From Anaerolineaceae bacterium (GTDB taxonomy: Bacteria > Chloroflexota > Anaerolineae > Aggregatilineales > Phototrophicaceae), in NCBI GenBank assembly GCA_020634135.1, contig JACKCG010000007.1:81550-145549 (forward strand): a stretch of DNA of 64,000 nt, in the 5' to 3' direction. Of the stretch, positions 18,863-59,041 are shown piece after piece. The notes beneath the pieces were generated by a model. It searched no databases. It saw only the letters and a list, made by a program, of their open reading frames with translations, and was not told the origin of the DNA. Numbering within the stretch: the first letter of the stretch is position 1; every line of letters begins with the position of its first letter. A program made the position numbers and the translations under genes.

Positions 18863-18877
18863 AAAATCCCCTGTTAC

Positions 18878-19240: not shown

Positions 19241-19249
19241 GCACCTCCC

Positions 19250-21424: not shown

Positions 21425-21484
21425 AGCATGGCTCGCATACTCTAATCGGATATTCCTCGTACAGCAGCGCGCAATATTTGTTCA

Positions 21485-22315
21485 CTATCCATTCACTTTT
21501 TGAGGTGTGCTGACTTCGCGCATCGGTTGACCATCACCGCCCCGCCGTATCATGATAATCTCACCCAGAATACTTACAGCAATTTCATGTGGTGTTTCAG
21601 CATTCAATTCCAGGCCGATGGGCGCATGGATTCGCGCCAACTGCGCATCAGTTATACCGCGTTCCGCTTTTAGCTGCTGAACGGTTAGTGCCCAGCGGCG
21701 GCGACTGCCAATCAGACCGATATACGCCGCCTCAGTCTCCAACAAGGCCGGAATCAGACTGATGTCTACCGGCAAACCGCGAGTCACAGCCGCGACATAG
21801 GTTTGTGTGCTGATCGTCATGTGCTGGGCGATTTCACCGGGTGCGCAGACAAGATAACCATCCATTCCCGGCAGATAGTCAGGCGTACACAAATCGGGCC
21901 GATCATCGGAGACCACGACACGATAGCCAGCCCATTTCGCTAGTTCAGCCAGCGCCTTGCCCACATGTCCACCGCCAATCACCAGCACCGTTGGCGAAAG
22001 ACCCGCTGGTTCGATAAACACCTGCACCGTACCACCACACACACCGGCATCTCCCGCTTCCATGTCATTGAGCGAATAGGAACACAACCGCGTTTTTCCA
22101 TCCTGAAGCGCAGCCAGAGATTCGGCAATGACCCGCGACTCTAACATGCCACCACCCACTGTCCCGACAATCGAACCATCAGCACGTACCAGCATTTTGC
22201 TCCCGGCATGGCGCGGCACGGAACCCTGGGCACTCACAACTGTCGCCAGCGCCACCGGCTCGCCCTGCTCCTGTGCCTCCAGTAGTGTCTGGTACACGAT
22301 CCGGTCAGCTTCCAT
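21485..22315 (-). CDS. xdhC: XdhC/CoxI-family molybdenum hydroxylase maturation factor
   Basis: ALATVVSAQGSVPRHAGSKMLVRADGSIVGTVGGG and Rossmann VLVIGGGHVGKALA. The ATG at 22315 is preferred because the longer ORF-track form overlaps the upstream gene by ~100 bp. Confidence 0.85.
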   Translation of the reverse strand: MEADRIVYQTLLEAQEQGEPVALATVVSAQGSVPRHAGSKMLVRADGSIVGTVGGGMLESRVIAESLAALQDGKTRLCSYSLNDMEAGDAGVCGGTVQVFIEPAGLSPTVLVIGGGHVGKALAELAKWAGYRVVVSDDRPDLCTPDYLPGMDGYLVCAPGEIAQHMTISTQTYVAAVTRGLPVDISLIPALLETEAAYIGLIGSRRRWALTVQQLKAERGITDAQLARIHAPIGLELNAETPHEIAVSILGEIIMIRRGGDGQPMREVSTPQKVNG

Positions 22316-25952: not shown

Positions 25953-26567
25953 TTACATGATTTCGCCAACTTTTGCTAATTCCCGGTAGATTTCCAGGTC
26001 AGCAGGCAGGTCAATATCCAGCAGCAGTCGGGGGGATTGATACTGTTTAACATCCGCGCCTGCCTCTTGAGCCAGCTCAATGTGCCGCCGGAAACTTCCG
26101 GGACCATAAGCATAGTCAATGACTCCAGGGGGGCGGATGAAGAGCGCGTTCGTGCCATCTTCATTCTGATCGGTAGCGATCACGACGGTCTGGTTATATG
26201 GACCCAACTCAATCATCGCAGTCAGGTCTTCCGGCGCAACCAAAGGCAGGTCCGCTGGCAAAACGAGGACGGCTGCACTGTTCCAGCGCGTCACCACCTG
26301 GGTCGCTCGCATCAGCGCGTTATTTAACTCAGGAGCGCCGCTTTCCTGCACCGTGCGTGCGCCAAATTCACGGGCAATCGCCAGCGCCCGGCTGTCACGG
26401 CTGATGACCAGCGTCCCCATAATCTGGGGGACGTTACGCACAGTAGCCAGCACATGCCGCAACATCAGTTCGGCCAGCTGTTCCCGTTCTTCGGGCGAAA
26501 GCACCTGCGCCAGACGGCTTTTGGCCCGGTTCAGTGGTTTGACTGGAATAATTGTCCATATTCCCAT
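25953..26567 (-). CDS. cofC: Phosphoenolpyruvate / 2-phospho-L-lactate guanylyltransferase (CofC/FbiD)
   Basis: IIPVKPLNRAKSRLAQVLSPEEREQLAELMLRHVL N-terminal signature, ~200 aa. Confidence 0.85.
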   Translation of the reverse strand: MGIWTIIPVKPLNRAKSRLAQVLSPEEREQLAELMLRHVLATVRNVPQIMGTLVISRDSRALAIAREFGARTVQESGAPELNNALMRATQVVTRWNSAAVLVLPADLPLVAPEDLTAMIELGPYNQTVVIATDQNEDGTNALFIRPPGVIDYAYGPGSFRRHIELAQEAGADVKQYQSPRLLLDIDLPADLEIYRELAKVGEIM

Positions 26568-26671
26568 AAGTCTTCAGCGCAAGCCCGCTTAAACCTGGGC
26601 CTGTCGCTTGAACCTCCTTTCGTTAGTGGCTCTATATCAGTAAAAAGCGTCTACCTTACCACTACCTATCT

Positions 26672-27604
26672 TCAAACCCAGGATTGAACCCACTGTAGCA
26701 TGTTTTCCGCTACGGCAATCCGGTCCGATTCTGAATTCATAACAATTTCAAAACTGGTCGTATGCTGCACTGGCAGTGGGAGTGTCTTATCTATGGTATC
26801 CACAATGAAGCCGTTTATTACGTCACCATAATACTCAGCGACAATCTGAGCTGACTGTTCATATCCTAACTCTACCATCAATTTTGCAGCAGGACCCTTA
26901 ACAGCTTTCCCCCCAATAATTGGGGAGATAGCCACACGTGGCACATCGCGGGATACGATAAGATCACGCATCCCCGGTACCGCCAGAATCGGCGCGATAG
27001 ATAACCAGGGATTCGACGGGCCGATAACGATGATGTCCGCATTTTGCAGTGCGGTATGAGCAGCGGGCGTGATAGCAGCATTCTCTATCCCGGCAAAGCG
27101 GAGCGATTTTACTACAGGTTGCCAGCGATAGCGTACAAAATAGGTTTGAAACGCCAGTTCGCCATGTTCAACCGTATCAACTATCGTTGCTACCGGCACA
27201 TCGGTCATCGGTAACACACAATGCTGTACCCCTAAAGCTGTATTCAGCCTCCTGGTGACCTCGGTCAGTGTCTCTCCGGCGGCCATTGCATTTGTGCGCA
27301 GCAGATGGGTCGCGATGTCCTGGTCGCCCAACTGAAACCAGGGTTCTTCGCCATAGCGTCGCGCCGCATCCAGAACGGCGTGCGTATCGCCTTCAATCCC
27401 CCATCCGTTGGTTTTACTTACCAGGCCGGAGAGCGTATACATGATGGTATCTAAATCGGGGCAAACGCGCAGACCATAATGCCAGAAGTCATCGCCCGTA
27501 TTCACAATAATGGTCAGGTTTTCCGGCGGCAGGATTTGCGCCAGGCCAAACGCCAGTTTCGCGCCACCTACCCCGCCAACCAGTACAACGACATTTATCG
27601 CCAC
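26672..27604 (-). CDS. cofD: 2-phospho-L-lactate (EPPG) transferase CofD/FbiA
   Basis: VLVGGVGGAKLAFGL and NTGDDFWHYGLRVCPDLDTIMYTLSG motifs. The GTG at 27604 is the proposed start. The longer ORF-track form to 27754 runs 160 bp into the upstream nitroreductase gene. Confidence 0.85.
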   Translation of the reverse strand: MAINVVVLVGGVGGAKLAFGLAQILPPENLTIIVNTGDDFWHYGLRVCPDLDTIMYTLSGLVSKTNGWGIEGDTHAVLDAARRYGEEPWFQLGDQDIATHLLRTNAMAAGETLTEVTRRLNTALGVQHCVLPMTDVPVATIVDTVEHGELAFQTYFVRYRWQPVVKSLRFAGIENAAITPAAHTALQNADIIVIGPSNPWLSIAPILAVPGMRDLIVSRDVPRVAISPIIGGKAVKGPAAKLMVELGYEQSAQIVAEYYGDVINGFIVDTIDKTLPLPVQHTTSFEIVMNSESDRIAVAENMLQWVQSWV

Positions 27605-28221
27605 AATACACTCGATTCTAGCGGGCGGCGGTCTCTGACCCGCGACTCCGCAGGAAAGCCCAGGGTAATCAAGCCCTGCGGCTGCCAATCCGCCGGAAGC
27701 GACAGAGCAGTCTGTACGACATCCGGGCAAAACAAGGGCGCACACAACCAGCACGCCCCTAAACCCGCATCATGCGCTGCCAGCAGCAGACTCTGCCCGG
27801 CCATCGCTACACTTTGTACCGCCATCACAAATTCGCTGCGGCTGCGGCGTTCATCGGGGTAGCTATCCATATCGGCCATTGTCAGGCAAACCACGATGAC
27901 GACGGGCGCAGTCGTAATGCGTTCATACGAACGAGTCGTATCGGCAATGATGGCGGCTTCAGGCACACTGTCAGCCTCCAGGTCGCGCCGTAAGCGTTCG
28001 CCCATCGCCACAGCCAATTGTGTCTTCCGTTCCACAGTCTCCACCACCGCGAAACGCCAGGGTTGGCGGTTATGGGCAGAAGGCGACCAGATTGCCGCCG
28101 TTAGAAGCGTTTCCAAAACCGCACGCGGCACCGCTTCAGGCCGGTAGCGGCGAATAGAACGCCGCCCCCGAATTGCAATCAGCAGGCCAGATGGCGGTGT
28201 GCTGCCAGCAGCATCACTCAA
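27595..28221 (-). CDS. Stand-alone nitroreductase-family protein, candidate dehydro-F420-0 reductase (FbiB C-terminal domain equivalent)
   Basis: RRSIRRYRPEAVP...AAIWSPSAHNRQPWRF nitroreductase signature. Has a 4-bp overlap with the cofE stop and a 10-bp overlap with the cofD start. Confidence 0.65.
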   Translation of the reverse strand: MSDAAGSTPPSGLLIAIRGRRSIRRYRPEAVPRAVLETLLTAAIWSPSAHNRQPWRFAVVETVERKTQLAVAMGERLRRDLEADSVPEAAIIADTTRSYERITTAPVVIVVCLTMADMDSYPDERRSRSEFVMAVQSVAMAGQSLLLAAHDAGLGACWLCAPLFCPDVVQTALSLPADWQPQGLITLGFPAESRVRDRRPLESSVLWR

Positions 28222-29030
28222 CGGTACAAATCCTGTTCAGGAGAGCGAACCAGGTTGGCAGCCCGGCCATCCGCAGGCGGATAATTGAGACCACGCAGAT
28301 GCATCACAGGTCGGCCTTCATTCGCCTCACCACTCAGCAAGTGAGCCGCCGAAGCCACCAGGTCGGCATAGCCCATCGTACTGATGTGCAATTTGCGCCC
28401 GAAAAGATCATCCTGACCGCGCAGATCAAGCACCGCCGGCAGCCCGGCAACCCCAATCGCCACACCGATATTACCCATCCGAAACGGCCTGCCATGCGAG
28501 TCACTAATCACAATCCCTACCGATGCGCCCGTTTTCGCTTTCAGGGCATCATGAATCCGGCAGGCCGAGGCGTCAGGATCAATGGGCAACAGCAACGCCC
28601 AATCGTCACTCCCGTTGACATTCGACTGGTCAATTCCGGCATTGGCGCTGACAAATCCTTGCCGGTGTTGTGTAATCAGGATTCCAGGCGCCTGCCGTGA
28701 AATCCGCAAACTCTCCCGCAGCACCAGTTCAACGATGCGCGGGTCTTTGTTTGTCTCTGCGGCCAATTGCTGCGCTTCGGTACTTACTTCAACCAAATTC
28801 AAATCTACCATACGACCTTCAGATTTGGAGACAATTTTGGATGTTATCACCAAAGCATCACCGTCTTGCAGCACCAACCCAGCCTGTGTCACACCTTCCA
28901 GAATGATCTGTACCAGATCATCACCGGGCTGAATCAGCGGAAGTCCCGGCAATGCGGTAATCGTCAAAGTTACATTTTGAGTTGGCAAACTATTCAATAC
29001 CGGTGATACGAATACCGGCCCCTTTGACAC
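28218..29030 (-). CDS. cofE: Coenzyme F420:L-glutamate ligase (CofE)
   Basis: [30 protein letters not shown] and NAGIDQSN motifs. The GTG at 29030 overlaps fno by 41 bp, and an alternative TTG at 28988 would remove that overlap. Confidence 0.87.
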
Positions 29031-29661
29031 TATATGCCTTGTTAATATACAGCAGCACGGGCGTTAATGCCTCGACGGCCACTGCGTTTGCCAGCGGCCC
29101 GGCATCCACACCCCGCATCCCGGTGGCCTCAACCAGTTTCATCACGTCAGCTTTAGCCGCCGCATCATTCCCACATACTAACACGTCGCAATCCACCACA
29201 TGGTTCGGGTTACGCAGATGCTCGGCGCTCACATTCTGAAAAGCAGCCACAACACGCACGGTATCGCCCAGATATGCCTGCGCCTCCAGTGCTGCCGAAT
29301 GCCCCTCCGGCACATGCACTGTACGGACCTTTGGCGGTTGAAGCGGAACGGTCAAATCCACCAGCACCTTACCGGCCAGGCAGTCTTTGACTCCTTCAAG
29401 TGTCGGTTTATGGGCTGAATACGGCACACTCAACACCACCAGGTCGGCCTGTGTAGCCGCCGCTCCGTTTTCCAGACCGGTAAGATAGTCTCCGCCCAAT
29501 TCAGCATTCATCTCAACCGCACGACTGGCAGCGCGTTCAGGGTCCCGCGAACCGATAATCACGTTATATCCGTTGAGCGCCCACCGCATCGCCAGGCCGG
29601 AGCCTTCTTTGCCTGTGCCACCTAAAACAGCGATTGTAAGCATCTGCTTTGCATCTATCAT
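28990..29661 (-). CDS. npdG: NADPH-dependent F420 reductase (Fno/NpdG)
   Basis: IAVLGGTGKEGSGLAMRWALNGYNVIIGSRDPERA signature. The start is probably ATG 29661 or 29643, because the ORF-track start at 29730 overlaps ssnA. Confidence 0.83.
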   Translation of the reverse strand: MIDAKQMLTIAVLGGTGKEGSGLAMRWALNGYNVIIGSRDPERAASRAVEMNAELGGDYLTGLENGAAATQADLVVLSVPYSAHKPTLEGVKDCLAGKVLVDLTVPLQPPKVRTVHVPEGHSAALEAQAYLGDTVRVVAAFQNVSAEHLRNPNHVVDCDVLVCGNDAAAKADVMKLVEATGMRGVDAGPLANAVAVEALTPVLLYINKAYSVKGAGIRITGIE

Positions 29662-29690
29662 AACGAAACTTAGTCCTTTTGTGACAACGA

Positions 29691-31034
29691 TTACAGTTGT
29701 TTTACGGCATGAGCCGCGTAGCGTTCCCATATCTGGGGCGCTAATGCCAATGCTTCACGAGCGATTACGGTCTCGTCCAGCATGAGAAGCTCACGATCTA
29801 ACATCAACGGTTTTCCGGCGACGATTGTGGCAGTCACCATAGAAGACTCGAAGCCAAACACAATATGCCAGGGGATATTCCCGTCTGTCAGCGGGGTGAA
29901 CGGGTGATAATCCACAAAGATTATGTCAGCAGCCGCCCCCACCCGCAATTCCCCCAGGGTCTGGCCGGGGAAGAAGCGCTCAATAAGCCGGGCATTATTT
30001 ACCGTAGCAATGCGCGCAATATCGGACCCGTTTGCCTGACGCGGATCACGGTGAGCGACTTTATGCAGCAAATAGGCCGTTTTCCACTCTGCCCACATAT
30101 TGTTGCTGAAGCCATCGTTGCCCAGCGCGACGTTCATCCCCGCTCCAAGCATCGTTTCCAGTGCCATCGCGCCGACCCCATTATTCATGTTTGAGCGCGG
30201 CTGATGCGAAATCCACGTTCCGCTCTCGCTCAGTATCCGGCGTTCTGCTTCGTCAATATGCACACAATGAGCAGCGATGGTCTTATCGCCCCATACACCA
30301 TACTCATCCAGACGCTGTACGACCCGTTTACCGCTTCGCCGCAGACTGTCTTCCTCATCGGCCTCATGTTCGGCCACATGGACATGATAGCCGGCGCCCT
30401 CAGGCAGCGCATCGGCACAGGCGCGCAGCGCGTTGTCATCAAGCGTCAGGCTGGCGTGCAGGCCAAATGTCCCGGCGATAAGCGGGGATTGGTTGTTTCT
30501 CATAAAACGGACATTTTCGGCAATCCCGGCGTACATCTTCTCTTCGCCGTCGCGGTCTGTCACTTCATAACACAACACGGCGCGCAGTCCTGCCAGACTA
30601 ACCGCATCCGCAATCTCATCCAAACTGCCCTCAATGAAATTCGGGCTGGCATGATGGTCAATCAGCGTAGTTGTGCCATGCTTCACAGCATCTACCAGAC
30701 AAACCAGGGCGCTCATCCGCACCGCATCAGCATCCAGCGCCTTATCCAGCGGCCACCATAACCGCCTCAGAATCTGCGGGAAGTCCGCTGGTGGCGCCCC
30801 CGGGATTGCCATACCCCGCGCATAGGCCCCGTAAAAATGCGTGTGAGCGCAGATGTTTCCCGGCATGACCAGTTGACCACGCGCATCCAGACGTGGCGTT
30901 TGCGGGTATTGTTCGAGTAAGTCCTTTGTGCGCCCTAATGCCTGAATCAGGCCATCTTCAATATAGAGTGCTTGGTCGCTTAAAACCTGGTTGTTTTCCC
31001 CCCAGGTGATGAGCGTACCGTTAATAATCAGCAT
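29691..31034 (-). CDS. ssnA: SsnA-family amidohydrolase (selenium-dependent Mo-hydroxylase-linked aminohydrolase)
   Basis: PGNICAHTHFY, LWWPLDKALD, LIDHHASP and PRSNMNNGVG match my recollection of E. coli SsnA. Amidohydrolase superfamily metal ligands are present. Confidence 0.82.
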   Translation of the reverse strand: MLIINGTLITWGENNQVLSDQALYIEDGLIQALGRTKDLLEQYPQTPRLDARGQLVMPGNICAHTHFYGAYARGMAIPGAPPADFPQILRRLWWPLDKALDADAVRMSALVCLVDAVKHGTTTLIDHHASPNFIEGSLDEIADAVSLAGLRAVLCYEVTDRDGEEKMYAGIAENVRFMRNNQSPLIAGTFGLHASLTLDDNALRACADALPEGAGYHVHVAEHEADEEDSLRRSGKRVVQRLDEYGVWGDKTIAAHCVHIDEAERRILSESGTWISHQPRSNMNNGVGAMALETMLGAGMNVALGNDGFSNNMWAEWKTAYLLHKVAHRDPRQANGSDIARIATVNNARLIERFFPGQTLGELRVGAAADIIFVDYHPFTPLTDGNIPWHIVFGFESSMVTATIVAGKPLMLDRELLMLDETVIAREALALAPQIWERYAAHAVKQL

Positions 31035-47247: not shown

Positions 47248-48264
47248 TCAAAGCTGCTGATGGAATGCCACGAGCGTCTCACGGAAGCCCTCTGGTAGTG
47301 TGGCCTGCGTCACTGGCACCCACTCCCAGCCAGGCGGCGTGATACGGTGGGATAGGGGGTAGAAATAGTATAATGTGGTGTGTTGGAAAAACTCAGGCGG
47401 CAAGCTGTCCATCGCTTCCGGCAGGGTGGCCGGGCTGGTAGACCAGCTCGCATAGCGCAGGTTGGCGCGATCCACTTCAATTCCCAGGTTATCTACCAGG
47501 GCGCTGCGGGCCGCATCCACCACCAACCGCCCATCGGTCACGCTGCCGGTTGGGAAGCGAGAATCACCCTGCAACTGCAACACCTCGTCATTGTAGACCG
47601 GAATGACCGTCACAACCGCTGTTTGTCTGTGGCGCGGCAGGTGCCGCTGCATACGCAGCTTTTCCAGGTCACGGCGACTGTATGCGGAGAGGATAATCGC
47701 GTGTAGTTGGTCTGCCGCCTGATTGATGTCATCATTCGTGATGAGATAGTCGCACAGGGGCGCATACTGCATCTCCATCTCAACCCGGCACAGCCGCTTT
47801 TCAATCTCTTCCGGGGGTTCGCCCCGCGCCTGCATCCGGGTCCGCAGCACGTCTAGCGCAGGTGGTTTAATAAAAATCAGAATGGTGTTATTCGGGTAAC
47901 AGGAACGGGTATACGTCGCCCCAAACACCTCGATATCCGCGATCAGGTCTTCACCAGCGCCCATAGCGCCCTCAACGGTCATACGCGGAATGCCATAAAG
48001 ATGCCCATGAACAACCTGGTGTTCCAGGAGTGCGTCGCGGGCAATCATCGTTTCAAATTCATCACGGGTGACAAACAGGTGTTCCCGCCCCTGTTTTTCT
48101 CCTGGGCGGATTGGGCGGGTTGTAGCGGTTGGAAGTTGGCGGATTTGATGACCAGATCGTGCCAGTACTGCTTTCATCAAGGAGTTTTTACCGACCCCAG
48201 GTGGGCCAACCAGTAAAAAAAGCAGTCCCAGAAAATGTTGTGGAATCCCTGTCACGACTTGCAT
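47248..48264 (-). CDS. gmk: Guanylate kinase fused to a C-terminal degenerate Nudix-like domain
   Basis: GPPGVGKNSL P-loop and TTRPIRPGEKQGREHLFV. The C-terminal ~150 aa has FPTGSVTDGRLVVDAARSALVDNLGIEV, a Nudix-box-like spacing that lacks the catalytic glutamates. Confidence 0.75.
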   Translation of the reverse strand: MQVVTGIPQHFLGLLFLLVGPPGVGKNSLMKAVLARSGHQIRQLPTATTRPIRPGEKQGREHLFVTRDEFETMIARDALLEHQVVHGHLYGIPRMTVEGAMGAGEDLIADIEVFGATYTRSCYPNNTILIFIKPPALDVLRTRMQARGEPPEEIEKRLCRVEMEMQYAPLCDYLITNDDINQAADQLHAIILSAYSRRDLEKLRMQRHLPRHRQTAVVTVIPVYNDEVLQLQGDSRFPTGSVTDGRLVVDAARSALVDNLGIEVDRANLRYASWSTSPATLPEAMDSLPPEFFQHTTLYYFYPLSHRITPPGWEWVPVTQATLPEGFRETLVAFHQQL

Positions 48265-48365: not shown

Positions 48366-48394
48366 ATAACAAACAAGGGGCCGAAGCCCCCTGT
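48366..48394 (-). terminator. Rho-independent terminator downstream of the giant gene
   Basis: Minus strand: CAGGGGGC-TTCG-GCCCCTTG followed by TTTGTT. Confidence 0.6.
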
Positions 48395-48454: not shown

Positions 48455-51400
48455 TTAGTTGTTCACCTGGATTTCCGTAATCCACCAACCATCTCTCACA
48501 GAACTGGTTGTGTATAGTCGGAAGCGCAGGCCGATGTAATTGTTCACATAGGACGCCAGGTTATGCCGCCGCAACATCCAGTCCCGCGATGGTGGCAACC
48601 ACTGCGCTGAACCTGAGATAGTCGGACTGTCGCAGCCCGGTGTACACCCGTTCGACAGATTATTCTGTGTCCAGGTGAAGCCCCCACTGTCAGTCACTTC
48701 CACATAGGCGCGATTGCCACTAGCCAGGTCATAGTAGGTATAGAATTGCAGCTGCGGTGCCCAGACAAAGCCCGGTGTCCCAGGGCTGGGATTATACAGA
48801 TTCAGCAGCCCATTCAGCATGAGTGACGAGTCACCATATAGAACTGAATTGATAACCGGGCTGGTCTGCGTCAGACGTGGGCTATCACTGAAGGAGAAGG
48901 TGTTATTCCCGACAGCCAGCTGGATCACCGCACTACCGCTTGCCTCAAACCATTCCAGGATCATACGGTAGTTACCCGCCGTCAGGGAAACATTTGCCAT
49001 GTAAACCGTCGCGCCCTGAGTCTTCCATTGCTCAACCAGATTCCATCCGGGCGGTTCGCCACCCGCTGGGTACGTTTCGTACCGGAGGCGTACCCCGTCA
49101 TCGGAACGGACGATAAATGTATAGTCACCGGCCTGAACCTGAATGTCGCGCACCCACCGCCCCACGAAGTGATCCGACCAGGTATTATCAAACTCACCGC
49201 CTGGCGGCCTGCCAGAAGTACCGAAATCGTAGTCAATATCACTGCTATAGGCCCGCAGCACCAGACCCGGATTGGCGACATCATAGGCTTCCATCGCGGC
49301 TACATACGTCCCGGTATCCGGATAATCCTCGGGCCTCGGCACACCATTCAGAGTTGAATTGGCGCGTGAGGTACTGCACGAAGCCGGACAGTCAATGAAG
49401 TAACCGTACCAGGGATTCGGGCCTAGCGCCGCCGGGCCACCACCAGAACCTTTCCACATATCCGGTGCCAGCCCCCAAATACCTTCAGCAACCCAGTTGG
49501 CTGTATTCTGAGCGCTATCGAAGAAGGGCAAACCGTAGATGGTGGGATTGTTCAGCACAAACCGCACATCATCCACCCAGAACCCATCCCGCAGACCGCC
49601 GCTTCCGCTGTAAGAGTACACCAGGAACCGGACACGGATTCGCGTCCCGATGAACGACGTCAGATCAATCTGTTCGCGTCCCCAGGTATCCCGCCGCGCC
49701 CATTCACTCTGTATCCAGACCGTTTGCCAGGCGTCCCAACCGTACAGACGCTCATACTGCTGCACAGTCTGAGACGTATTTTCCGGCGCGAACTGCACCA
49801 TAACATAGTCGTTGTCGCCAACATTATAGTGTGTCCAGAAGTACATAATCGGGTTGTCGCTGGCCTGTGTCCCGCGCAGGTCAATGATCGTGCTCATTTC
49901 CAGTACGCTGTAGGTAAGATGCCGGTAGTTGGTGTTTTCCGGCGGGCTGTCATGGAATGACCGCAACAGGCTGCGACGATCCCAGTCAATCCCGAACCAA
50001 TCGCCACCAGCCCACCACCGAGTCCACCAGGCGGATGGTTGGTCAATATTGTCAATATAGTTGCCACCACCAAGGCCCAGGCCACCGGGATTATCCATCT
50101 GACTCCACAGCTTGTGGACGACTTCCTGTTTTTCGTAGACATCTATGTTGTCCACATAGATGCCGTCACCAACAGACGAATTCGAGCGCGCATCCAACCG
50201 GATACGGAAGTAGAAGTCATCATCATGTGTATCACCGTTGCTCTTCAGCGTCGCCCAACTCAACCCGGTAGCCTGTTGGATAGCCGCCAGCAGGTCAATT
50301 TCAACTCGTTCCCAGGCAAGCTGGTCGCGGGTCGTGCTGTTGTAGGTATAGCTCCACACAGGTGTCCAGGCGATTGATGCCGTGCCAGTATCCGTGTTTG
50401 CTGGACGGAAGATGTCCACATAGATCGCTTCGTTGGGATTCAGATCACGCCAATGCCAGAAGGATAGCATCGGATATACTGCCGGGCCGGACGGATTGTT
50501 ATTACAGTCCTTGTTGCCGCCCCAGACCGTCAGATTTTCTGGCGTGTCATTGTTGAAGTCAATCGGGTAGCGCAGTTCAAGCGAGTTGTTTGAACCATGG
50601 ACGTAGTTACCCAATGGACTGTCGGTGAAGGAATGTCCAGCGCCGCCGTAGCCACTGCTGGAGGTCATCCCCCACGACCCGGTGAAGAACCAATTATCAA
50701 TCCCGCGTTCAGCGTCATCACAGAAAGGATACTGGCTGTAGCGCGGCAGCCCTTCCCGTTCGAGGGTAATGTCATCAATGTACCAACCGTCGCGGCTGTT
50801 GCTGTTCTTGTCAACAATCAGGGCGAAACGCAGCCGGAATGGCTGGCTGTACCAGTTCGGGACTGCATTCAACAGGAATTCGACAAACTCATATCCTGCT
50901 GCGGACTGCCCGGTTGCCAGTACATTACCGGCCCGAGTCCAGGTATCCGGCACATTGTCCCGCGCATCCCGCGTCCATTGAATTTCAATGCGGTCTCCCG
51001 AGTCCAGGTCATAAGCACTCCAGAAGGAGAGCATCGGCATACCATCATCGCCCTCCCAATCCGGTTGTCCACCGGAACCATCGGGGAGGATGTCAGTCAG
51101 ATTGATGTCACCGTTGAACTCAACATAGTGTATACGAACATCGTTGGTCGCGTCCTGCTGCCAACCAAAGTCGTCATAGTTCCCGGTGGGGCTGGAATCC
51201 CAGCTCATAGCGGCTGTATCGCCCAGATGAGCATTATTGGTCGTCAATTCGAAGCGACCCGACGAGATGAAGTCACTTTTTTGACTCTGTGAATCGAGGT
51301 TCCACGCCATCCCGCAGGTGAGTTTACTGTCGTGACACACGGTAAACGTCCGCGTATTCCGGTTCGTGATATTGACATCGTCTATGAACCAGCGACGAAT

Positions 51401-52753
51401 GCCCGTTCCGGCGGTACTGCGTACCCGGAAGCGGTACGCCACCTGTGTGTATCCCAGGCCGGAGAGGTCTACCACGTTCCGTGTCCAGTTGTAGTTCGAC
51501 CCACTCGCATGTAGAGGAATCGTCAGCCCGGCTGCCCAGTTCGGGCCGCCACTGGCGAAGTCAGCGCCATAGGGCGCGTACTGTGCAATCTGCAGATCAG
51601 CCGTCGCGCCCGCCTGGAAATCCCAGACATCCCAGAAATTGAGTTCCGGGCTGACGAGGCCGCCAATATCCACATAGCCACGCAGTTCCAGGTGGCAAAG
51701 CATATTGGGTTCAATACCATTCGAGTCCGTAGCATTGTCGAACCAGGCCCAGGCCAGTGTATTCGGCTGGGTTCCGGTAATACGGCCCCAGGCACAACGC
51801 GGATCGCCGCTCCCTAGATTCTGGTCATCCGGTGTGCTGCGTTTCGGCAGGGTGATATCCAGGAACGCACGCGCATTACCGCTGTTTTCCCTGAACTCAA
51901 AGATCAGCGTATGCGTTCCGGCGGTCAGTGTCTGGTTCGTGCTGCGGCTGCCGCTCGTCCACTGGTTCCACACCGTCGTGGAATCAATTTTGAAACTATA
52001 GTAGTCGTCGGCCTCAACGCTGAAATTGAGCGTAATATCGTTCGCAACCTGGATAGTCCGTGTCCACCGTATCGAGAAATTGTCGGTTGCCCAACCCGGT
52101 AGCGGCGAGCCACCACCCCAGTCAAAATTGATATTCCGCTTGTGATTATCGTGAATGCCAGGTCCCCACAAGCTCTGAAGCTCATAATTCCAGATGAAAT
52201 TACGGCCCAGGTATTCAACCGGCGTGCCACTCAGGCTGTTGTTGGGGAAGTATTCGCCCTTCCAGTCCTCACCGCCCAACCAGGCGCTGGTATCCGTCCG
52301 CCACCAATCGGGATGGTCAATCGGATCAATATGCGGCGCAATAAATTCCGCGTCCGTCGCGGTTGGAGTGATTGTATCCGTCTTCGTCGGTGTCGGCGTC
52401 GGTGATGGCACCGTCGGAGAAGGTGTCGGTGTCGGCCCTTCTGTCGGCTCAACCGTGTCTGGCGGCGGCAGGTTCGTCGGGAATGGTGTTTCCTGCGGGG
52501 GATTCAGGGCTATTGCGGTGACGGTCTGCCAGAAGGCAACCGGCCCCGCCCCGGATAAGTCCGAAGGCGTCGTATCCTGTCCCAGCAGGTTATATACCGT
52601 GTTGCTGAAAACGTTCCCCAGAGCCGGGCCAGTCGCGATCAAGGCCGCGGCCAGGGCGATGACGACCAGAATCAGGATCAGCGCATATTCAATTAATGCC
52701 TGACCCGATGATCGCCGCCGTGCTGCTTTAGGGCTGGCGTGCTGTGCATTCAT
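48455..52753 (-). CDS. Giant secreted/surface protein: Flp/TadE-type prepilin-like N-terminus, PT linker, PA14 domain, four jelly-roll-like modules, second PA14, fifth module
   Basis: SSG/QALIEYALILILVVIALAAALIA fits the G/XXXXEY class III signal. PA14-like W.GEYFPNNSLSGTPV (aa ~165-312) and WSDHFVGRWVRDIQVQAGDYTFIVRSDDGVRLRY (aa ~1120-1292). Five modules each carry P.L.FW...D and end in DGW(Y/F/W)(I/V)DD(I/V). The ATG at 52753 is preferred (GAGAGG upstream), and the ORF is open to 52780. Confidence 0.85.
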   Translation of the reverse strand: MNAQHASPKAARRRSSGQALIEYALILILVVIALAAALIATGPALGNVFSNTVYNLLGQDTTPSDLSGAGPVAFWQTVTAIALNPPQETPFPTNLPPPDTVEPTEGPTPTPSPTVPSPTPTPTKTDTITPTATDAEFIAPHIDPIDHPDWWRTDTSAWLGGEDWKGEYFPNNSLSGTPVEYLGRNFIWNYELQSLWGPGIHDNHKRNINFDWGGGSPLPGWATDNFSIRWTRTIQVANDITLNFSVEADDYYSFKIDSTTVWNQWTSGSRSTNQTLTAGTHTLIFEFRENSGNARAFLDITLPKRSTPDDQNLGSGDPRCAWGRITGTQPNTLAWAWFDNATDSNGIEPNMLCHLELRGYVDIGGLVSPELNFWDVWDFQAGATADLQIAQYAPYGADFASGGPNWAAGLTIPLHASGSNYNWTRNVVDLSGLGYTQVAYRFRVRSTAGTGIRRWFIDDVNITNRNTRTFTVCHDSKLTCGMAWNLDSQSQKSDFISSGRFELTTNNAHLGDTAAMSWDSSPTGNYDDFGWQQDATNDVRIHYVEFNGDINLTDILPDGSGGQPDWEGDDGMPMLSFWSAYDLDSGDRIEIQWTRDARDNVPDTWTRAGNVLATGQSAAGYEFVEFLLNAVPNWYSQPFRLRFALIVDKNSNSRDGWYIDDITLEREGLPRYSQYPFCDDAERGIDNWFFTGSWGMTSSSGYGGAGHSFTDSPLGNYVHGSNNSLELRYPIDFNNDTPENLTVWGGNKDCNNNPSGPAVYPMLSFWHWRDLNPNEAIYVDIFRPANTDTGTASIAWTPVWSYTYNSTTRDQLAWERVEIDLLAAIQQATGLSWATLKSNGDTHDDDFYFRIRLDARSNSSVGDGIYVDNIDVYEKQEVVHKLWSQMDNPGGLGLGGGNYIDNIDQPSAWWTRWWAGGDWFGIDWDRRSLLRSFHDSPPENTNYRHLTYSVLEMSTIIDLRGTQASDNPIMYFWTHYNVGDNDYVMVQFAPENTSQTVQQYERLYGWDAWQTVWIQSEWARRDTWGREQIDLTSFIGTRIRVRFLVYSYSGSGGLRDGFWVDDVRFVLNNPTIYGLPFFDSAQNTANWVAEGIWGLAPDMWKGSGGGPAALGPNPWYGYFIDCPASCSTSRANSTLNGVPRPEDYPDTGTYVAAMEAYDVANPGLVLRAYSSDIDYDFGTSGRPPGGEFDNTWSDHFVGRWVRDIQVQAGDYTFIVRSDDGVRLRYETYPAGGEPPGWNLVEQWKTQGATVYMANVSLTAGNYRMILEWFEASGSAVIQLAVGNNTFSFSDSPRLTQTSPVINSVLYGDSSLMLNGLLNLYNPSPGTPGFVWAPQLQFYTYYDLASGNRAYVEVTDSGGFTWTQNNLSNGCTPGCDSPTISGSAQWLPPSRDWMLRRHNLASYVNNYIGLRFRLYTTSSVRDGWWITEIQVNN

Positions 52754-53016
52754 AAGTGCTTGACCTCTCATCCCAATCATGGAAGTCGGATTTGATATGG
52801 AAAATCAGGCCAGCCACAGGCTTGCCGATTCCTACCTCTTATTTATGGTACTCTAATCTGTCAAAATATCGGCTTAGGTTTTGTCGGCAAGTTGTTCAAA
52901 TGCGTTTACAATTTGTCCGGCAAAAATCATAACCTTCCTCACTCGTTTCCCTACATCTCTCATGTTATGCTGTTGGTACCCGAACTTCAATAGCACGGAA
53001 GGACTGTATTGCACCC

Positions 53017-54716: not shown

Positions 54717-56141
54717 ATGCAATCAAAGAAGAATGTCATTCAAGGGAGCAGCCTGGCGCTCGTCGCGCTGGTTTTGCTCGTCTCCCTCTTGATTTCCGCC
54801 AGCGTGGCCCAACCGGTCATGGCCCAGGGTCTGCCGACACCAACGGCTACGCCCAATGATCCGATCTGGCGCGGGTTTTCTGCCGTCCGCGCCGCTATTG
54901 AAGAGAAGTTCTCCGTCAGCCTGCCCTATGTGCGCTCGTATGACTGGGAACAGGCCGAGTTCATCGGTGGGATTGATGGCTGCCGTGAATTGGAGAATCC
55001 GCTGGAAGCCCGTCCTATCTACTGGGGCTGGCAGTACACCATCACCAGCCTGTTTGGAGAAGTCTACCAGGGGCGCATCAGTTTTGACCTGAAAGAAGTC
55101 GCCGTCTGTGACGAAGTCCAGGTCGCGGCGGCGCCAGCGCCTGTAAATGGAACCCCCGACCCGAACCTCCCTACCCCGGTTCCGGGCAGCGCAGCCGCTG
55201 GCGGGTTTGAACTGGGCGGTCATGTTCTCGATATGAGCCTGAACACGTTCGGCCTCATGAATCGCGCTGGTATGAAGTGGGTCAAGAAGCAGATCCGCTA
55301 CAACGTCGGTGATGATCCCAGCAACGTCGCAACATTCATCAGCACAGCCCACTCAAACGGCTTCAAGATTCTCCTCGGCATTGTCGGCCAGACTTCGCAG
55401 ATGGGTGACTACAACGGCTACATTAACACCTTTGCCAACTATCTCGGCGGTGTCGCAGCGCTCGGCGCGGATGCGATCGAAGTCTGGAATGAACCGAACA
55501 TTGACCGCGAGTGGCCTGCCGGTACCGTCAACGGAGGCACCTATACCCAGATGCTCGCCGCCGCTTACAACGCCATCAAAGCCAAGAACGGCAACACACT
55601 CGTGATTAGTGGCGCACCGGCACCTACCGGCTACTTTGGCACAGCAGGATGTACCGCCAACGGCTGTAACGATGACACCTTTATGCAACAGATGGCACAG
55701 GCTGGAGCAGCCCAGTACATGGACTGTGTAGGTCTGCACTATAACGAAGGCATTGTTTCACCGCAGACCAACAGCGGCGACCCGCGTGGCGAATACCCAA
55801 CCTACTACTTCAGCTCAATGCTCAACCGGGGCTACTCGCCATTCGGCGGTAAGCCGGTCTGCTTCACCGAGTTGGGGTATCTCTCGCCAGAAGGCTTCAG
55901 CACGCCGCTGCCAGCGAACTTCGCCTGGGCGCAGAACACCAGCGTGGCTGAACATGCGTCCTGGCTCGCGGGCGCGGCTACAGCCGCCTCGCAGAGTGGC
56001 AAGGTTCGCCTCATGATTATCTGGAACGTGGACTTCCCCTTCTTCACGGCAGATGACCCGATGGGTGGCTATGCCCTCTTCCGGCCTAATGCCACCTGCC
56101 CCGGCTGCGACAGCCTGGGCGCGGTGATGAAGGGCAGCTAA
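54717..56141 (+). CDS. Secreted clan GH-A (GH5-like) glycoside hydrolase with an N-terminal domain of unknown function
   Basis: Signal peptide (LALVALVLLVSLLISASVAQPVMAQG). IEVWNEPN is the acid/base Glu motif and CFTELGY is the nucleophile Glu motif. An AGAGG SD lies 7 nt upstream. Confidence 0.68.
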   Translation: MQSKKNVIQGSSLALVALVLLVSLLISASVAQPVMAQGLPTPTATPNDPIWRGFSAVRAAIEEKFSVSLPYVRSYDWEQAEFIGGIDGCRELENPLEARPIYWGWQYTITSLFGEVYQGRISFDLKEVAVCDEVQVAAAPAPVNGTPDPNLPTPVPGSAAAGGFELGGHVLDMSLNTFGLMNRAGMKWVKKQIRYNVGDDPSNVATFISTAHSNGFKILLGIVGQTSQMGDYNGYINTFANYLGGVAALGADAIEVWNEPNIDREWPAGTVNGGTYTQMLAAAYNAIKAKNGNTLVISGAPAPTGYFGTAGCTANGCNDDTFMQQMAQAGAAQYMDCVGLHYNEGIVSPQTNSGDPRGEYPTYYFSSMLNRGYSPFGGKPVCFTELGYLSPEGFSTPLPANFAWAQNTSVAEHASWLAGAATAASQSGKVRLMIIWNVDFPFFTADDPMGGYALFRPNATCPGCDSLGAVMKGS

Positions 56142-56246: not shown

Positions 56247-56783
56247 ATGAACACAAATCCGCACATAGCTGACTGCACAGAAACGGAAACCACGGAAACC
56301 GATTGGGAAGCGGTATACCGCGAACAAATGCCCCGAATCTATAACTTTTTCCGCTACCGCGTAGGCGATGGGCAGCTAGCTGAAGACCTGACGGCTTCCG
56401 TCTTTGTAAAAGCGTGGCGAAACAGAGATCAGTATTCGCGCAACCTGGGCGCATTCTCCACATGGCTGTTCACTATCGCCCGCCACACCGCCATAGATTA
56501 CTTTCGCCAACATCACATTGAACTTCCGTTAGAGATGGCCGTAACTCAGCCTGAAAACACACCTGTTGAAGAAATTATTCAGCAAAGAAGTGATTTTACA
56601 CGGCTCTCAGGACTGCTTCAGCGTTTATCTGCTCGCGAACGGGAGTTGATTTCCCTCAAATACGGCGGTGAATGTACGAACCGGGCCATCGCCACGCTGA
56701 CCGGTCTGAGCGAATCAAATGTCGGAACTATCCTGTATCGTGTGGTGCAAAAACTCCGAGGACAATGGGAATCTGAACCATGA
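56247..56783 (+). CDS. ECF-type RNA polymerase sigma-70 family factor
   Basis: IYNFFRYRVGDGQLAEDLTASVFVKAW, WLFTIARHTAIDYFR, and region 4 CTNRAIATLTGLSESNVGTILYR. Confidence 0.9.
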   Translation: MNTNPHIADCTETETTETDWEAVYREQMPRIYNFFRYRVGDGQLAEDLTASVFVKAWRNRDQYSRNLGAFSTWLFTIARHTAIDYFRQHHIELPLEMAVTQPENTPVEEIIQQRSDFTRLSGLLQRLSARERELISLKYGGECTNRAIATLTGLSESNVGTILYRVVQKLRGQWESEP

Positions 56784-59041
56784 GCGATGACTTCTTACAT
56801 AAATTCCGGGAAGAACCACGCCCTGAGTTTACTGAATCCTTGTACAAACAACTCAATCAGGAGGCAGATGACATGATGTTATCAGTCAGTGTACCAACCC
56901 TGTCCATAAATGGTCGTCATACCCGCTCCCGGTCGCATACCACAAACCACTCGCTGGCTTTAATCGCGGCTACTTTTGCCCTCGTGATCTTAGGGGCAAT
57001 TCTGCTTTACATGGCGAATGCGGGCACTCCACACCCCACCATACTCACACAGATTGACACCGAAATATCGTTGGACGACCTGCCAACAATCACCCGTGAA
57101 AACGCCAACCGGCTAGTGCAAATCAAACAGATTGGCGAGGGCGCGGTGAATCAGATTGTCTGGTCACCAGATGGCAAAACACTGGCCGCCGCCGGAACGC
57201 TTGGTGTATGGCTCTATGACACCAGCGCGTGGGACACTTCCCCACTGCTGTTAATGCAATCAGCGGACATTGGGGCGGAACGCCAGGTTACCTTCAGCGC
57301 AGACGGAACACTGTTGGCAGCTTCGGATGGAGCGGCTATCCACATCTGGGATACAAGTACATGGGGATTAACACTCATCCTGGAAGGACACACCAATACC
57401 GTTACCGCCCTGGCCTTCAGCCCGGATAGCTCGACTCTAGCCTCCAGCAGTGGCGATTTCGGGGTTGCAGACAGCGAATACACTGTTCGATTATGGGATA
57501 CACAAAGTGGCGCTCAGCAAGTTGTTCTCACTGATACGGACGGAGTCATACAGAGTCTGGCCTTCAGCCCTGATGGCGCCCTGTTAGCGGCAGCCTGCTG
57601 GTGTGAAGATGAGAAGAGTCGGGTATGGAATTTGCAGTCCGGTGAACGGATTCAGCAACTGGAGCATACCGGCGGGGCATACGCGAAACAAGACCTGGTT
57701 TTCAGCCCTGATGGCGGGTCGTTGGCACAGGGAGACAGGTGGGGTGTGAACCTGTGGAACACAGTGACCGGAGAACAAATCGAGCAAGTAAAGCGTACAG
57801 AATCTGTTCCGCTCAATCTCCAGGATATAGTCTATAGTTCGGATGGCGGATTGTTGGCTTTTGGTAGCTGGAACTACGGGATAAACGTTTGGGATACTCA
57901 GGCAAAGGAATTCCTGCCCCGATCCCAGGAACAACAGTCTCTGCTTGAGGTAGACAGCTTAACATTTAATCCAAGTGGGGAACAGATAGCAACTCTGACC
58001 AACGGCAATCTGGTTCAAATTTGGGATACCTATTCCGGCGAAGAACTCGCTCATATTCAGGATTGGACGGGGCAGGTTCGCGCCCTCATCAGCGCCAACG
58101 GTCAGTCTATTGTCGCGCATTCGACACGAGGCGGAGTGATTAGTGTGTACGACAGCGCGAATGGTACACTGCGCCGCCAGATAGATACCGGATTGAGTCG
58201 CATCTTTTATCACGGAGTTGCTCTCAGTTCAGATAATACCACCCTGGCATATGTGGGATGGAATGCCTCACTATTGAATACAGTGCCAATTACCACTAGT
58301 ACGCCGATCAGCTTAACCAATATTTCAACCGGTGAAATCCGTTCATTGGGCGAAGATTCAAAAGGTGGCTATCTACTGGCGATCAGCCCGGACGGAATAC
58401 ACCTGGCGAGTGCATCACCTCTTACCCCGACATCAGTACAAATCTGGGACATCGCAGATCCAGAAATCCCTGTATCGGTCTTCCAGACCCACCTGGAACT
58501 CGATCCCCCAGCGATCCAGACGCCGAATGACATCCGGTACTCCCCCGACGGCCTATACCTGGTTCTGGAATATGTATCTGGTGAGATGTCCGTTATCAGG
58601 GCAGATACGGGCGAACCGGTGAGTGAATTCAGACCACCAAGTGATGTTGATACCACATCAGGCAGCTTTCATGATCTGCTCACTGCGATCAGCCCAGATG
58701 GGATGCGGCTTGTCACAATGTACAATGCACCGTATGACACGCCCGAAGATGGGGCTGCAATTTATATCTGGGACATAGAAAGCGGCGAGCTTCTGAACAC
58801 CTTCCAAGCGAGCGCACTTGGTATCGCTGACCCCATCTTCAGCCCGGATGGGCGGTTGCTGGTGCTGGCGATGGTCAATAAAACAGAAATTCTGGATGCT
58901 GAAACTGGCGAGAGTCTTTTCCTTAGCGATCAATCCGGCCTTTTGTCTGCCAGCTCAATCGCGTTTGACCCTGACGGGCGGTTTATCGTAACAGGTGGCT
59001 GGGATGGCATTATCCGGGTGTGGGGTGTACTGCCGAAATAA
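56780..59041 (+). CDS. Anti-sigma-like membrane protein with a large WD40/beta-propeller extracytoplasmic domain
   Basis: 4-bp ATGA overlap with the sigma gene. One TM (LALIAATFALVILGAILLYM), then ~13 (F/W/Y)SPDG...-type blades ending in GGWDGIIRVW. Confidence 0.8.
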   Translation: MSDDFLHKFREEPRPEFTESLYKQLNQEADDMMLSVSVPTLSINGRHTRSRSHTTNHSLALIAATFALVILGAILLYMANAGTPHPTILTQIDTEISLDDLPTITRENANRLVQIKQIGEGAVNQIVWSPDGKTLAAAGTLGVWLYDTSAWDTSPLLLMQSADIGAERQVTFSADGTLLAASDGAAIHIWDTSTWGLTLILEGHTNTVTALAFSPDSSTLASSSGDFGVADSEYTVRLWDTQSGAQQVVLTDTDGVIQSLAFSPDGALLAAACWCEDEKSRVWNLQSGERIQQLEHTGGAYAKQDLVFSPDGGSLAQGDRWGVNLWNTVTGEQIEQVKRTESVPLNLQDIVYSSDGGLLAFGSWNYGINVWDTQAKEFLPRSQEQQSLLEVDSLTFNPSGEQIATLTNGNLVQIWDTYSGEELAHIQDWTGQVRALISANGQSIVAHSTRGGVISVYDSANGTLRRQIDTGLSRIFYHGVALSSDNTTLAYVGWNASLLNTVPITTSTPISLTNISTGEIRSLGEDSKGGYLLAISPDGIHLASASPLTPTSVQIWDIADPEIPVSVFQTHLELDPPAIQTPNDIRYSPDGLYLVLEYVSGEMSVIRADTGEPVSEFRPPSDVDTTSGSFHDLLTAISPDGMRLVTMYNAPYDTPEDGAAIYIWDIESGELLNTFQASALGIADPIFSPDGRLLVLAMVNKTEILDAETGESLFLSDQSGLLSASSIAFDPDGRFIVTGGWDGIIRVWGVLPK

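Follow-up and report, generated by a model that had tools for sequence, protein, structure and literature searches.

The stretch of DNA analyzed here, designated the window, comprises 64,000 nucleotides of contig JACKCG010000007.1 from an Anaerolineaceae bacterium (assembly GCA_020634135.1). Its minus strand contains a giant open reading frame (ORF) at positions 48455 to 52780 (stop codon at 48455-48457), the product of which combines a head resembling a Flp pilin with a long array of PA14 and jelly-roll domains. The ORF, recorded as encoding 1,441 residues in a first-pass annotation of the window, is present and uninterrupted, and its G+C content is typical of the rest of the window. Translation is likely to start at the ATG codon located at 52753-52751 (M10 of the ORF), since a Shine-Dalgarno-like hexamer, GAGAGG (52764-52769), is present 10 nucleotides upstream from this codon and a 97%-identical homologue (P0001) begins at the same methionine. 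The nine preceding codons are probably untranslated. The resulting protein comprises 1,432 residues, which are numbered here from M10; all features of the gene are on the minus strand. As described in the first-pass annotation, the gene has its own upstream region (236 bp up to the start of the ORF, 263 bp up to M10) and its own putative terminator, a GC-rich hairpin with a T-rich tail (48376-48392) located 63 nucleotides past the stop codon and detected by a consensus scan only.

A full-length search identified at least 206 homologues (30-97% identity), nearly all of which are full length (98-99% query coverage). An assembly artefact or a broken ORF, which had been envisaged as a possible flaw of the initial proposal, was ruled out by the presence of intact orthologues of at least 1,300 residues in 72 of 87 loci. 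In three loci from Microflora Danica long-read metagenome-assembled genomes (MAGs; L051, L054, and L070), the giant ORF breaks off after 151-343 residues. These interruptions are probably homopolymer frameshifts of long-read assembly rather than true pseudogenes.

Type IV pilins are inserted into the membrane by a class III signal, cleaved after a conserved glycine, and retain a glutamate at position 5 of their N-terminal helix. The N-terminus of the giant protein comprises, in this order, a basic leader peptide, MNAQHASPKAARRRSSG (52703-52753), the motif G/QALIEY, a hydrophobic helix, and the segment ATGPALGNVFSN. The last residue of the leader is an invariant glycine (G17), after which cleavage is predicted. 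The Flp-pilin-like module that follows, QALIEYALILILVVIALAAALIATGPALGNVFSNTVYNL (52583-52702), was delineated by its conservation and by its match to the Flp_Fap profile. The processing site reads SSG/QALIEY, in agreement with the G/XXXXEY signature of Flp/Fap pilins. A six-frame translation of the window contained a single occurrence of G-x4-E-[YF] followed by a hydrophobic stretch, and the motif G-Q-[AS]-[LM]-[IV]-E-Y-[AT]-L-I was found after a basic leader of 12-25 residues in 116 of the 120 listed homologues, the remaining four being truncated at the N-terminus or called from a later start. The class III signal recognized in the first-pass annotation is therefore the only one of its kind in the window and is a family trait. 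Its coordinates (52685-52705, from the glycine to the tyrosine) were correct, but the glycine was numbered G26 instead of G17.

Conservation within the family was measured on an alignment of 55 sequences (mean column identity of 29%). Residues G17, Q18, E22, Y23, L25, and F49 of the head were invariant, whereas T41, G42, P43, A44, and N47 were at least 90% conserved (invariant in a 34-sequence subset). Mean pairwise identity was 17% for the leader, 70% for the head (residues 17-57), 57% for a conserved short helix (FWxTVTxVAxNP, 52484-52543) located between the pilin module and the linker, and 33-40% for each piece of the ectodomain. These results indicate that no other part of the giant protein is as constrained as the head, which is subject to strong purifying selection. 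They also argue that the head is more than a Sec signal or a plain anchor, since neither of these needs an invariant glutamate and an invariant tyrosine within the helix.

Flp_Fap (PF04964) was the best Pfam match of the window N-terminus, with a score of 12.7-13.8 bits, below the gathering threshold of 32.2 bits. The heads of the homologues scored 13.6-19.8 bits, also below the threshold, with Flp_Fap as the top or second match of giant heads (E 0.0007-0.12) over profile positions ~5-45 of 46. The score of the head with Class_IIIsignal was below threshold in the Pfam scan, and no NCBIfam model matched the head or a small Flp pilin of the same clade. TadE (PF07811) gave an E-value of 0.2 with the head of one homologue, N_methyl (PF07963) an E-value of 1.2 with the head of one homologue and no match with the window protein, and a full-length Pfam scan of the window protein detected neither a vWA nor a Tad domain. 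Together with the tad genes not found nearby (see below), the sub-threshold scores would be accounted for if the head were an ordinary signal-anchor, as in type II membrane proteins, or an atypical Sec signal, with a likeness to Flp due to descent or convergence, no pilin function at present, and a protein acting as a membrane-tethered multi-lectin. This explanation appears improbable in view of the invariance of G17, Q18, E22, and Y23 and of the identity level of the head (70% versus 33-40% elsewhere). In addition, the hydrophobic stretch exceeds 20 residues and, by eye on the sequence, is not followed by an AxA-type site, and a charged glutamate located five residues into the membrane helix is a hallmark of type IV pilins (PMC10710030).

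The small Flp pilins of the clade offer a direct term of comparison. In the genome encoding homologue P0028 (locus L018), two tandem flp genes of 48-49 codons are located 3.2 kb upstream from the giant gene (L018:6634-6980). They read GQGLVEYALILVLV...LLGPAIGNIFSNLVRNI, and one of the two products is, in full, MLYMPREEGQGLVEYALILVLVAVVVIVILALLGPAIGNIFSNLVRNI. The head of the window protein and the 48-residue Flp of L018 are identical at 22 of 40 positions (55%). For the latter protein, 7,555 relatives were retrieved; the best 120 of them are 85-100% identical to it, mostly exactly 48 residues long, originate from Anaerolineae, and bear precomputed PF04964 assignments and Flp pilin names. The bona fide 48-residue Flp pilins of the clade scored 24-27 bits with Flp_Fap, at the same profile positions as the giant heads. 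The Flp_Fap model is thus weak for this clade, since its bona fide pilins also fall under the cut-off. Judged from its sequence, the N-terminus of the giant protein goes beyond a mere prepilin-like leader and reproduces the Flp pilin of the clade in its entirety. The head thereby resembles a pilin even more closely than proposed in the first-pass annotation. A second pair associating a small Flp with a giant protein is apparent from a single match, the 6,247,952-bp longest contig listed for both P0162 and P0059 (ERZ25072999:ctg322078_11x_l, which carries P0059 and apparently P0162).

A search with residues 1-62 against 1.84 billion representative proteins (E ≤ 0.001) returned 963 matches. The best 150 comprised 16 already-known family members and 134 new proteins, which were classed with a hidden Markov model (HMM) of the ectodomain only. 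Among these best 150 matches, every protein longer than 300 residues matched the ectodomain HMM from its beginning. The full-length members contained 1,243-2,268 residues and the shorter ones ended at contig or frame ends. The best 150 also included 53 proteins of fewer than 150 residues without an ectodomain match and approximately 11 proteins of 150-300 residues without an ectodomain, which were head-plus-linker fragments or tandem-Flp proteins. Since the best matches comprise only the giant family, Flp-sized proteins, and short fragments, the head appears to be a dedicated pilin-type module. A general export or anchor signal present on many cargoes is unlikely because the best-150 matches of more than 300 residues belong to one family only.

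These data bear on the possibility that the giant protein is a surface lectin processed like a pilin but never polymerized, the class III signal serving for processing and for anchoring to the membrane or to a pseudopilus stub. Such a situation would resemble the Sulfolobus bindosome, a set of class III-signal sugar-binding proteins that, like the giant protein, have large soluble binding domains behind a prepilin-type signal and are processed by prepilin peptidase. In contrast to the giant head, which is found on one bacterial family, the bindosome is archaeal, involves several cargoes, and has its own assembly system. A many-cargo situation is argued against by the close relatives of the head, which are limited to small Flp proteins and the giant family among the best 150 matches, whereas a general signal is expected on many cargoes. 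Conservation extends over the entire Flp helix and includes the ATGPAxGNVFSN segment past the membrane-spanning part, which suggests subunit-subunit contacts rather than anchoring alone. The processing motif and the conservation of the head are equally well explained by a lectin that is not polymerized, the giant gene was never found in a tad operon, the long Pro/Thr spacer would be suited to crossing the wall from a membrane anchor, and the stable single-copy synteny described below fits a housekeeping surface function. Taking both sets of observations into account, we regard this explanation as possible but doubtful.

The head search also retrieved ORFs, located outside the window, that contain 2 to 4-5 Flp-like units each (P0348, 418 residues; P0241, 182 residues; P0325, 152 residues; and P0349, 138 residues). 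Each unit consists of G-Q/E-G-x-V-E-Y followed by a helix, and the units alternate with additional hydrophobic segments in P0348, P0241, and P0325. These ORFs could be poly-Flp precursors cut repeatedly by the prepilin peptidase or fused calls of tandem flp genes.

The short helix is connected to the ectodomain by a Pro/Thr-rich linker with a conserved GPSPTPT core (52346-52483), modeled with a predicted local distance difference test (pLDDT) score below 50. The core of the linker, T-x-G-P-S-P-T-P-T, is nearly invariant, which is odd for a pure spacer, and could be a glycosylation site. In one genome, a PMT_2-family glycosyltransferase is encoded two genes downstream from a small flp gene (L090:10999-13017).

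The ectodomain contains two PA14 domains and five repeated modules. The putative first strands of module 1 (FIAPHIDPIDHPDWWR..., 52259-52345), assigned from a weak match to the N-termini of modules 3 and 4 and from modeled strands at residues 135-143, precede PA14 domain 1 (51839-52258) and the main body of module 1 (51356-51838, ending with RRWFIDDVNI). Modules 2 (50750-51355, ending with DGWYIDDITL), 3 (50126-50749, ending with DGIYVDNIDV), and 4 (49547-50125, ending with DGFWVDDVRF) follow. The putative first strands of module 5 (LPFFDSAQNTANWVAEGIWG, 49454-49546) then precede PA14 domain 2 with a helical lead-in (48896-49453), and the main body of module 5 (48458-48895, ending with DGWWITEIQVNN) completes the protein. 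In Pfam scans of the whole protein, PA14 (PF07691) scored 44.3 bits (cut-off of 24) and InhA-like_MAM (PF20773) 49.1 bits (cut-off of 26.9), each over two stretches. Scans of single pieces gave 36 bits for PA14-1 and 17 bits for PA14-2, and, for InhA-like_MAM, 26.4 bits for module 4, its best match, and 17.2 bits for module 5. Of the profiles that the first-pass annotation had put forward for the protein, PA14 thus exceeded its cut-off, Flp_Fap remained below 32.2 bits, and TadE was limited to the E-value of 0.2. Precomputed annotations of the homologues include PF20773 and PF21471. Comparison of the family profile with PDB sequences matched the PA14 domain of RsgI3 (6qe7) with an E-value of 5e-31. 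Lectin PA14 domains have a Ca2+/carbohydrate site with a DcisD-type motif; in PA14-2, a DD(G) motif is conserved, D1218 and D1219 being nearly invariant.

Profile-profile comparisons of the modules, drawn from the 55-sequence alignment, showed that all five are mutually homologous (hhalign probability of 97.4-99.7%, E 1e-11 to 1e-26) and that homology also links the two PA14 regions (99.5%). These comparisons and the Pfam matches bear out the initial description of a Pro/Thr linker, two PA14 domains, and five repeated jelly-roll modules. For modules 1-3, the tie to the MAM type is solely the profile-profile homology that they share with modules 4 and 5. The alignment of modules 1 and 5 with modules 2-4 begins only at approximately residue 25-55 of the module, and LPFFDSAQNTANWVAEGIWG, located N-terminal to PA14-2, has an 84% probability match to YPFCDDAERGIDNWFFTGSWG, with which module 3 starts. 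Since the N-terminal strands absent from modules 1 and 5 sit just before each PA14 domain, the latter domains appear to be inserted within these two modules rather than to form separate beads. The content of the array was therefore described correctly in the initial proposal; its arrangement, with the PA14 domains as separate units, seems not to hold.

The structure of the protein was modeled in two halves by AlphaFold2 with 33-34 homologues. The first half (residues 1-670) had a mean pLDDT of 77.6, with domains mostly at 80-95 from residue 135 on, and the second half (residues 665-1432) a mean pLDDT of 88.0 and a predicted template modeling (pTM) score of 0.75. The head was modeled as two helices (residues 17-40 and 44-57), a third and shorter one covers FWxTVTxVAxNP (residues 71-83), and the Pro/Thr linker was disordered. 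Foldseek searches of the PDB with both halves placed reelin repeats on top (2e26, 5b4x, and 3a7q; E 8e-13 to 3e-15). Further matches included the MAM domains of enteropeptidase and meprin, neuropilin, tandem CBM22 domains, and the CBM-like domains of Cry toxins, and the PA14 domains matched RsgI3 and the Marinomonas adhesin (MpIBP). The models indicate that the five modules are jelly rolls of the MAM, reelin-subrepeat, or CBM type, and the MAM-like fold guessed in the initial proposal is confirmed by both InhA-like_MAM and Foldseek. A protease was considered and rejected, as NCBIfam matches to C-terminal, non-catalytic regions of M36 peptidases were at chance level and no peptidase domain was present. 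The ectodomain is an array of binding-type beta-sandwiches devoid of a catalytic domain.

The giant gene is widely distributed in one order. A scan limited to one genome per species identified 148 relatives, and no assembly was represented twice among the 80 loci that were kept. The named assemblies belong to Aggregatilineales, Phototrophicaceae/Phototrophicales, Candidatus Flexifilum breve, and unclassified Anaerolineae or Chloroflexota, Candidatus Flexifilum being placed within Aggregatilineales. In five distant genomes, in which the giant protein is 32-45% identical to that of the window, the gene order consists of a divergent upstream folD gene (FolD), the giant gene, and genes for a guanylate-kinase-domain protein and a GCV_T-domain protein. 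Beyond the latter lies a DivIC-domain gene on the opposite strand, often followed by a gene for an SH3 and beta-lactamase protein. The same order is present in the window. The complete genome CP146238.1 (Aggregatilineales bacterium SYSU G02658) harbors the giant gene at 1,549,330-1,553,832. The giant gene is thus an apparently single-copy, vertically inherited, and syntenic core gene of the order Aggregatilineales (Anaerolineae). Many members are named 'Flp pilus assembly pilin Flp' or 'Flp family type IVb pilin' by automated pipelines. The assertion that the architecture has no characterized example agrees with our literature search, which yielded no published description of the family; the architecture is not an oddity, however, since it is shared by the homologues of an order-wide syntenic gene. 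Some giant-gene contigs (L013, L044, L045, L071, and L076) are filed as Bacteroidetes, Pleurocapsa, or delta-proteobacterium MAGs. The usual neighbors were present in the one case that was checked, and these labels are likely to be binning or labeling errors.

Size variants of 1,800-2,270 residues were observed in loci L005 (P0116), L050, L052, L053, L073, L074, and L084, and as proteins P0261, P0297, P0317, and P0335. In a subgroup of 1,950-2,020 residues, an F5/8-type-C region is inserted in the middle of the protein. The additional modules of the variants are F5/8 type C and an extra PA14-like region near the C-terminus or, in others, CBM_4_9, LamG, and TSP3. The scaffold therefore tolerates extra binding modules.

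Order-wide conservation, a single copy, and housekeeping synteny are features of a structural envelope component. They raised the possibility that a Tad-type machinery, or self-assembly, polymerizes the giant protein itself, as the main building block of a distinct structure (a thick filament, a sheath, or a surface layer) with a lectin array on every subunit. The second half of the protein, predicted to be compact and rigid (pTM of 0.75), would be compatible with this function, and the envelopes of filamentous Chloroflexota are complex, multilayered, and poorly understood (PMC7332563, PMC13319060). High expression is not evidenced, a 150-kDa ectodomain on every 40-residue helix would be sterically demanding, and the extremely conserved small Flp present in the same genomes is the obvious major subunit. 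For these reasons, we consider a major structural subunit to be unlikely. In a related scheme, to which we attach an equally low probability, the giant protein would recur as a subunit of an order-specific surface filament or sheath, or would be required there in stoichiometric amounts as a partner of the 48-residue Flp. If this scheme were true, a Tad-type core bearing 150-kDa lectin arrays from end to end would constitute a new class of type IV filaments. It would build the aggregating, filament-bundling envelope of Aggregatilineales and explain why the gene has the status of a syntenic core gene rather than that of a variable adhesin.

The reading that we favor, at roughly even chances, is that the giant protein is a modular Flp-type (type IVc/Tad) minor pilin displaying a multivalent lectin-type array for adhesion or aggregation. 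The preprotein would enter the cytoplasmic membrane via its class III signal and would be cut after G17 by a prepilin peptidase of the TadV/CpaA type. The 40-residue Flp helix would then prime or join a Tad filament built mainly of the 48-residue Flp, or, alternatively, would tether the protein, in a pilin-like form, to the membrane. Since the C-terminus of Flp is exposed at the surface of the filament, the giant protein would most likely be located at the filament tip, where assembly starts, or otherwise be scattered sparsely among the other subunits. The short conserved helix and the spacer of approximately 45 Pro/Thr-rich residues would push the ectodomain of approximately 1,300 residues outward, where it may act as a multivalent glycan-binding adhesin in cell-cell, filament-filament, or cell-substrate attachment. 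The functional proposal of the first-pass annotation, an adhesin of a Tad-like pilus or a pilin-anchored surface protein, is plausible. Tad clusters are widespread and transcribed in Anaerolineae (PMC4877987, PMC11653643, PMC10746286, PMC13319060), and thin pili consistent with Tad pili have been observed on Litorilinea, a filamentous member of the Chloroflexota (PMC13319060).

Several observations weigh against this modular-pilin reading. As already stated in the first-pass annotation, no tad or cpa assembly gene was present in the window; a Pfam analysis of the 50 further ORFs, corresponding to all long non-overlapping ones, also revealed no prepilin-peptidase gene. Scans of the window for signatures of secretion ATPases and A24 peptidases gave no credible match. 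Genes of these three types (tad, cpa, and prepilin peptidase) were neither recorded nor found by motif within 10 kb of the giant gene in approximately 85 related loci. The Walker box of secretion ATPases and the A24 GxGD box were not detected in the window plus 88, later approximately 98, loci, and the ATPase motif had no occurrence in 1.77 Mb of related loci. From the window and locus scans, tad or prepilin-peptidase genes were not demonstrated for any genome harboring the giant gene. The supplementary tables of a paper on wastewater Chloroflexota did not show tad machinery for a giant-gene genome, and a search on strain SYSU G02658 yielded nothing on such machinery. The lack of tad neighbors says little, since the bona fide small flp genes of the clade are orphans too. 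Inspection of the context of two small Flp proteins did not reveal a tad operon, and small flp genes were found beside genes for EF-G and ribosomal proteins S1/S21 or for CAP and LysM proteins (L088-L098, flp at ~10001 or ~4000-7000). The other unfavorable points are the Flp_Fap scores of the giant heads (12.7-19.8 versus 32.2 bits), the failure of NCBIfam models to match the head or the small Flp, and the low AlphaFold2 confidence of the head (pLDDT of 45-66). Strict housekeeping synteny and single-copy inheritance are unusual for an adhesin, and both would be compatible with a structural envelope protein as well. The folded ectodomain, of approximately 150 kDa, must by some route either traverse the cell wall or be accommodated inside it, and our search found no expression or proteomic data on the giant protein.

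In its mode of action, the giant protein would resemble modular pilins and the tip pilins of Tad systems, yet it belongs to neither group as defined, since it has no N-methylation motif and no TadE or TadG domain and is encoded outside a tad locus. Modular type IVa (T4a) pilins with grafted adhesive domains are thought to be located at the pilus tip (PMC8179133). Named examples are PilB (pilin and vWA) and PilC (pilin and lectin) of Streptococcus sanguinis (PMC8179133, PMC9934059). As in these proteins, a class III signal and a pilin module carry domains foreign to the pilus, in this case two PA14 and five MAM/CBM-like domains. The proposed role in adhesion, the monoderm-type organization of the bacteria, and the predicted location at the tip are also shared with the S. 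sanguinis pilins. In contrast to the bare type IVc Flp helix of the giant protein, modular pilins are of the T4a type, with a globular pilin domain and the N-methylation motif IPR012902 (PF07963) used in the modular-pilin survey, which the giant protein does not harbor. The largest protein singled out in that survey contains 860 residues, versus 1,432-2,270 in the giant family, and Flp and Tad are not mentioned in the paper (PMC8179133).

Large minor pilins of Tad systems, TadG and KilN, have been proposed to act as exchangeable tips (PMC12075869). TadG, CpaL of Caulobacter, and KilN of Myxococcus resemble the giant protein by their size, their prepilin-type N-terminus, and their variable C-terminal domains proposed to be at the tip (PMC12075869, PMC11870444). 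They differ from it as TadE/TadG-like pseudopilins encoded in tad or kil loci, often containing vWA-type domains, and forming complexes with TadE and TadF, whereas the N-terminus of the giant protein is a full copy of a major pilin, its cargo consists of PA14 and MAM-like domains, and its gene was never found in a tad locus. The Flp/Fap major pilins (PF04964) have in common with the giant protein the G/xxxxEY site, the hydrophobic helix, and the GPAxGNxFSN tail. They are helices of 40-60 residues without a C-terminal domain (PMC10710030), whereas approximately 1,375 more residues extend beyond the giant head. The giant protein agrees with this group in its processing site and departs from it in size and profile score. 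The protein was not filed as an ordinary Flp pilin because approximately 1,415 residues follow the predicted cleavage site. Finally, the PA14 domains are similar in fold and sequence to those of Clostridium thermocellum RsgI3 (6qe7), a polysaccharide sensor, and of the Marinomonas primoryensis ice-binding adhesin (6x7x, 6m8m), and, by analogy, recognition of extracellular carbohydrates may be expected of the giant protein. RsgI3 is anchored as an anti-sigma factor and the Marinomonas protein is an RTX adhesin secreted by a type I system; unlike the giant protein, neither has a pilin head. Another very large protein of a filamentous Chloroflexota is GhlA of Litorilinea aerophila (WP_141610714.1), a grappling-hook protein of 6,596 residues with an N-terminal hydrophobic stretch of 19 residues and no signal peptide reported (PMC13319060).

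Modular pilins and Tad tip pilins are known; what is new here is a type IVc (Flp) carrier with an exceptionally large lectin-type cargo, encoded by a core gene of one order. Tad/Flp pilins are defined as tiny helices without a C-terminal domain, and specific adhesion is credited to separate tip pseudopilins, namely TadG, CpaL, and KilN. If the modular-pilin reading is correct, covalent fusion of a full Flp pilin with a multi-lectin array of 150 kDa would solve the problem of adhesion by a bare filament in another way, and the notion of modular pilins would extend to type IVc, with a cargo far above that of any pilin singled out in the survey. Filamentous Chloroflexota of this order are abundant in activated sludge, sediments, and mats, and the conservation of the gene as a single copy across the order makes it a candidate for Chloroflexota adhesion, aggregation, and floc building. 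The idea is open to testing, since at least one isolate with a complete genome is available. The very strong conservation of the head also provides a natural probe of substrate recognition by the Tad machinery.

The other long ORFs of the window have housekeeping or metabolic functions, including F420 biosynthesis, a xanthine-dehydrogenase cluster, purine and pyrimidine enzymes, and sigma factors. The gene immediately downstream from the giant gene (47248-48264, minus strand) encodes a protein of 338 residues, in which a guanylate-kinase domain covers residues 17-191 only. The remaining approximately 145 residues had no Pfam match, and the orthologues contain 196-324 residues. In several distant genomes, a gene for a Transposase_mut-domain protein of 213-341 residues, followed by clpP (ClpP), occupies a conserved position just past FolD (L001:7800-8738, L002:8135-8776, L005:8104-8817, and L007:5223-6248). 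Such positional conservation is not expected of a transposase, which suggests that this gene has been domesticated. The equivalent place in the window is occupied by an ORF of 474 codons without a Pfam match (54717-56141, plus strand).

Two pairs of genes on the plus strand of the window (56247-59041 and 2671-4549) each consist of a sigma-70/ECF-type sigma factor gene followed by that of a large putative partner, a WD40 beta-propeller protein of 753 residues and a LysM protein of 443 residues. A xanthine-dehydrogenase-type cluster (14807-22402, minus strand; molybdopterin subunit, FAD/2Fe-2S subunit, and XdhC) encloses a gene for a DUF6909 protein of 588 residues (734 bits, full-length match) and adjoins an ORF of 856 codons without a Pfam match (22305-24875). 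A coenzyme F420 cluster (25953-29730, minus strand) encodes a CofC-like protein, CofD, a nitroreductase-family protein, an F420-0:gamma-glutamyl ligase, and an F420-dependent NADP oxidoreductase.

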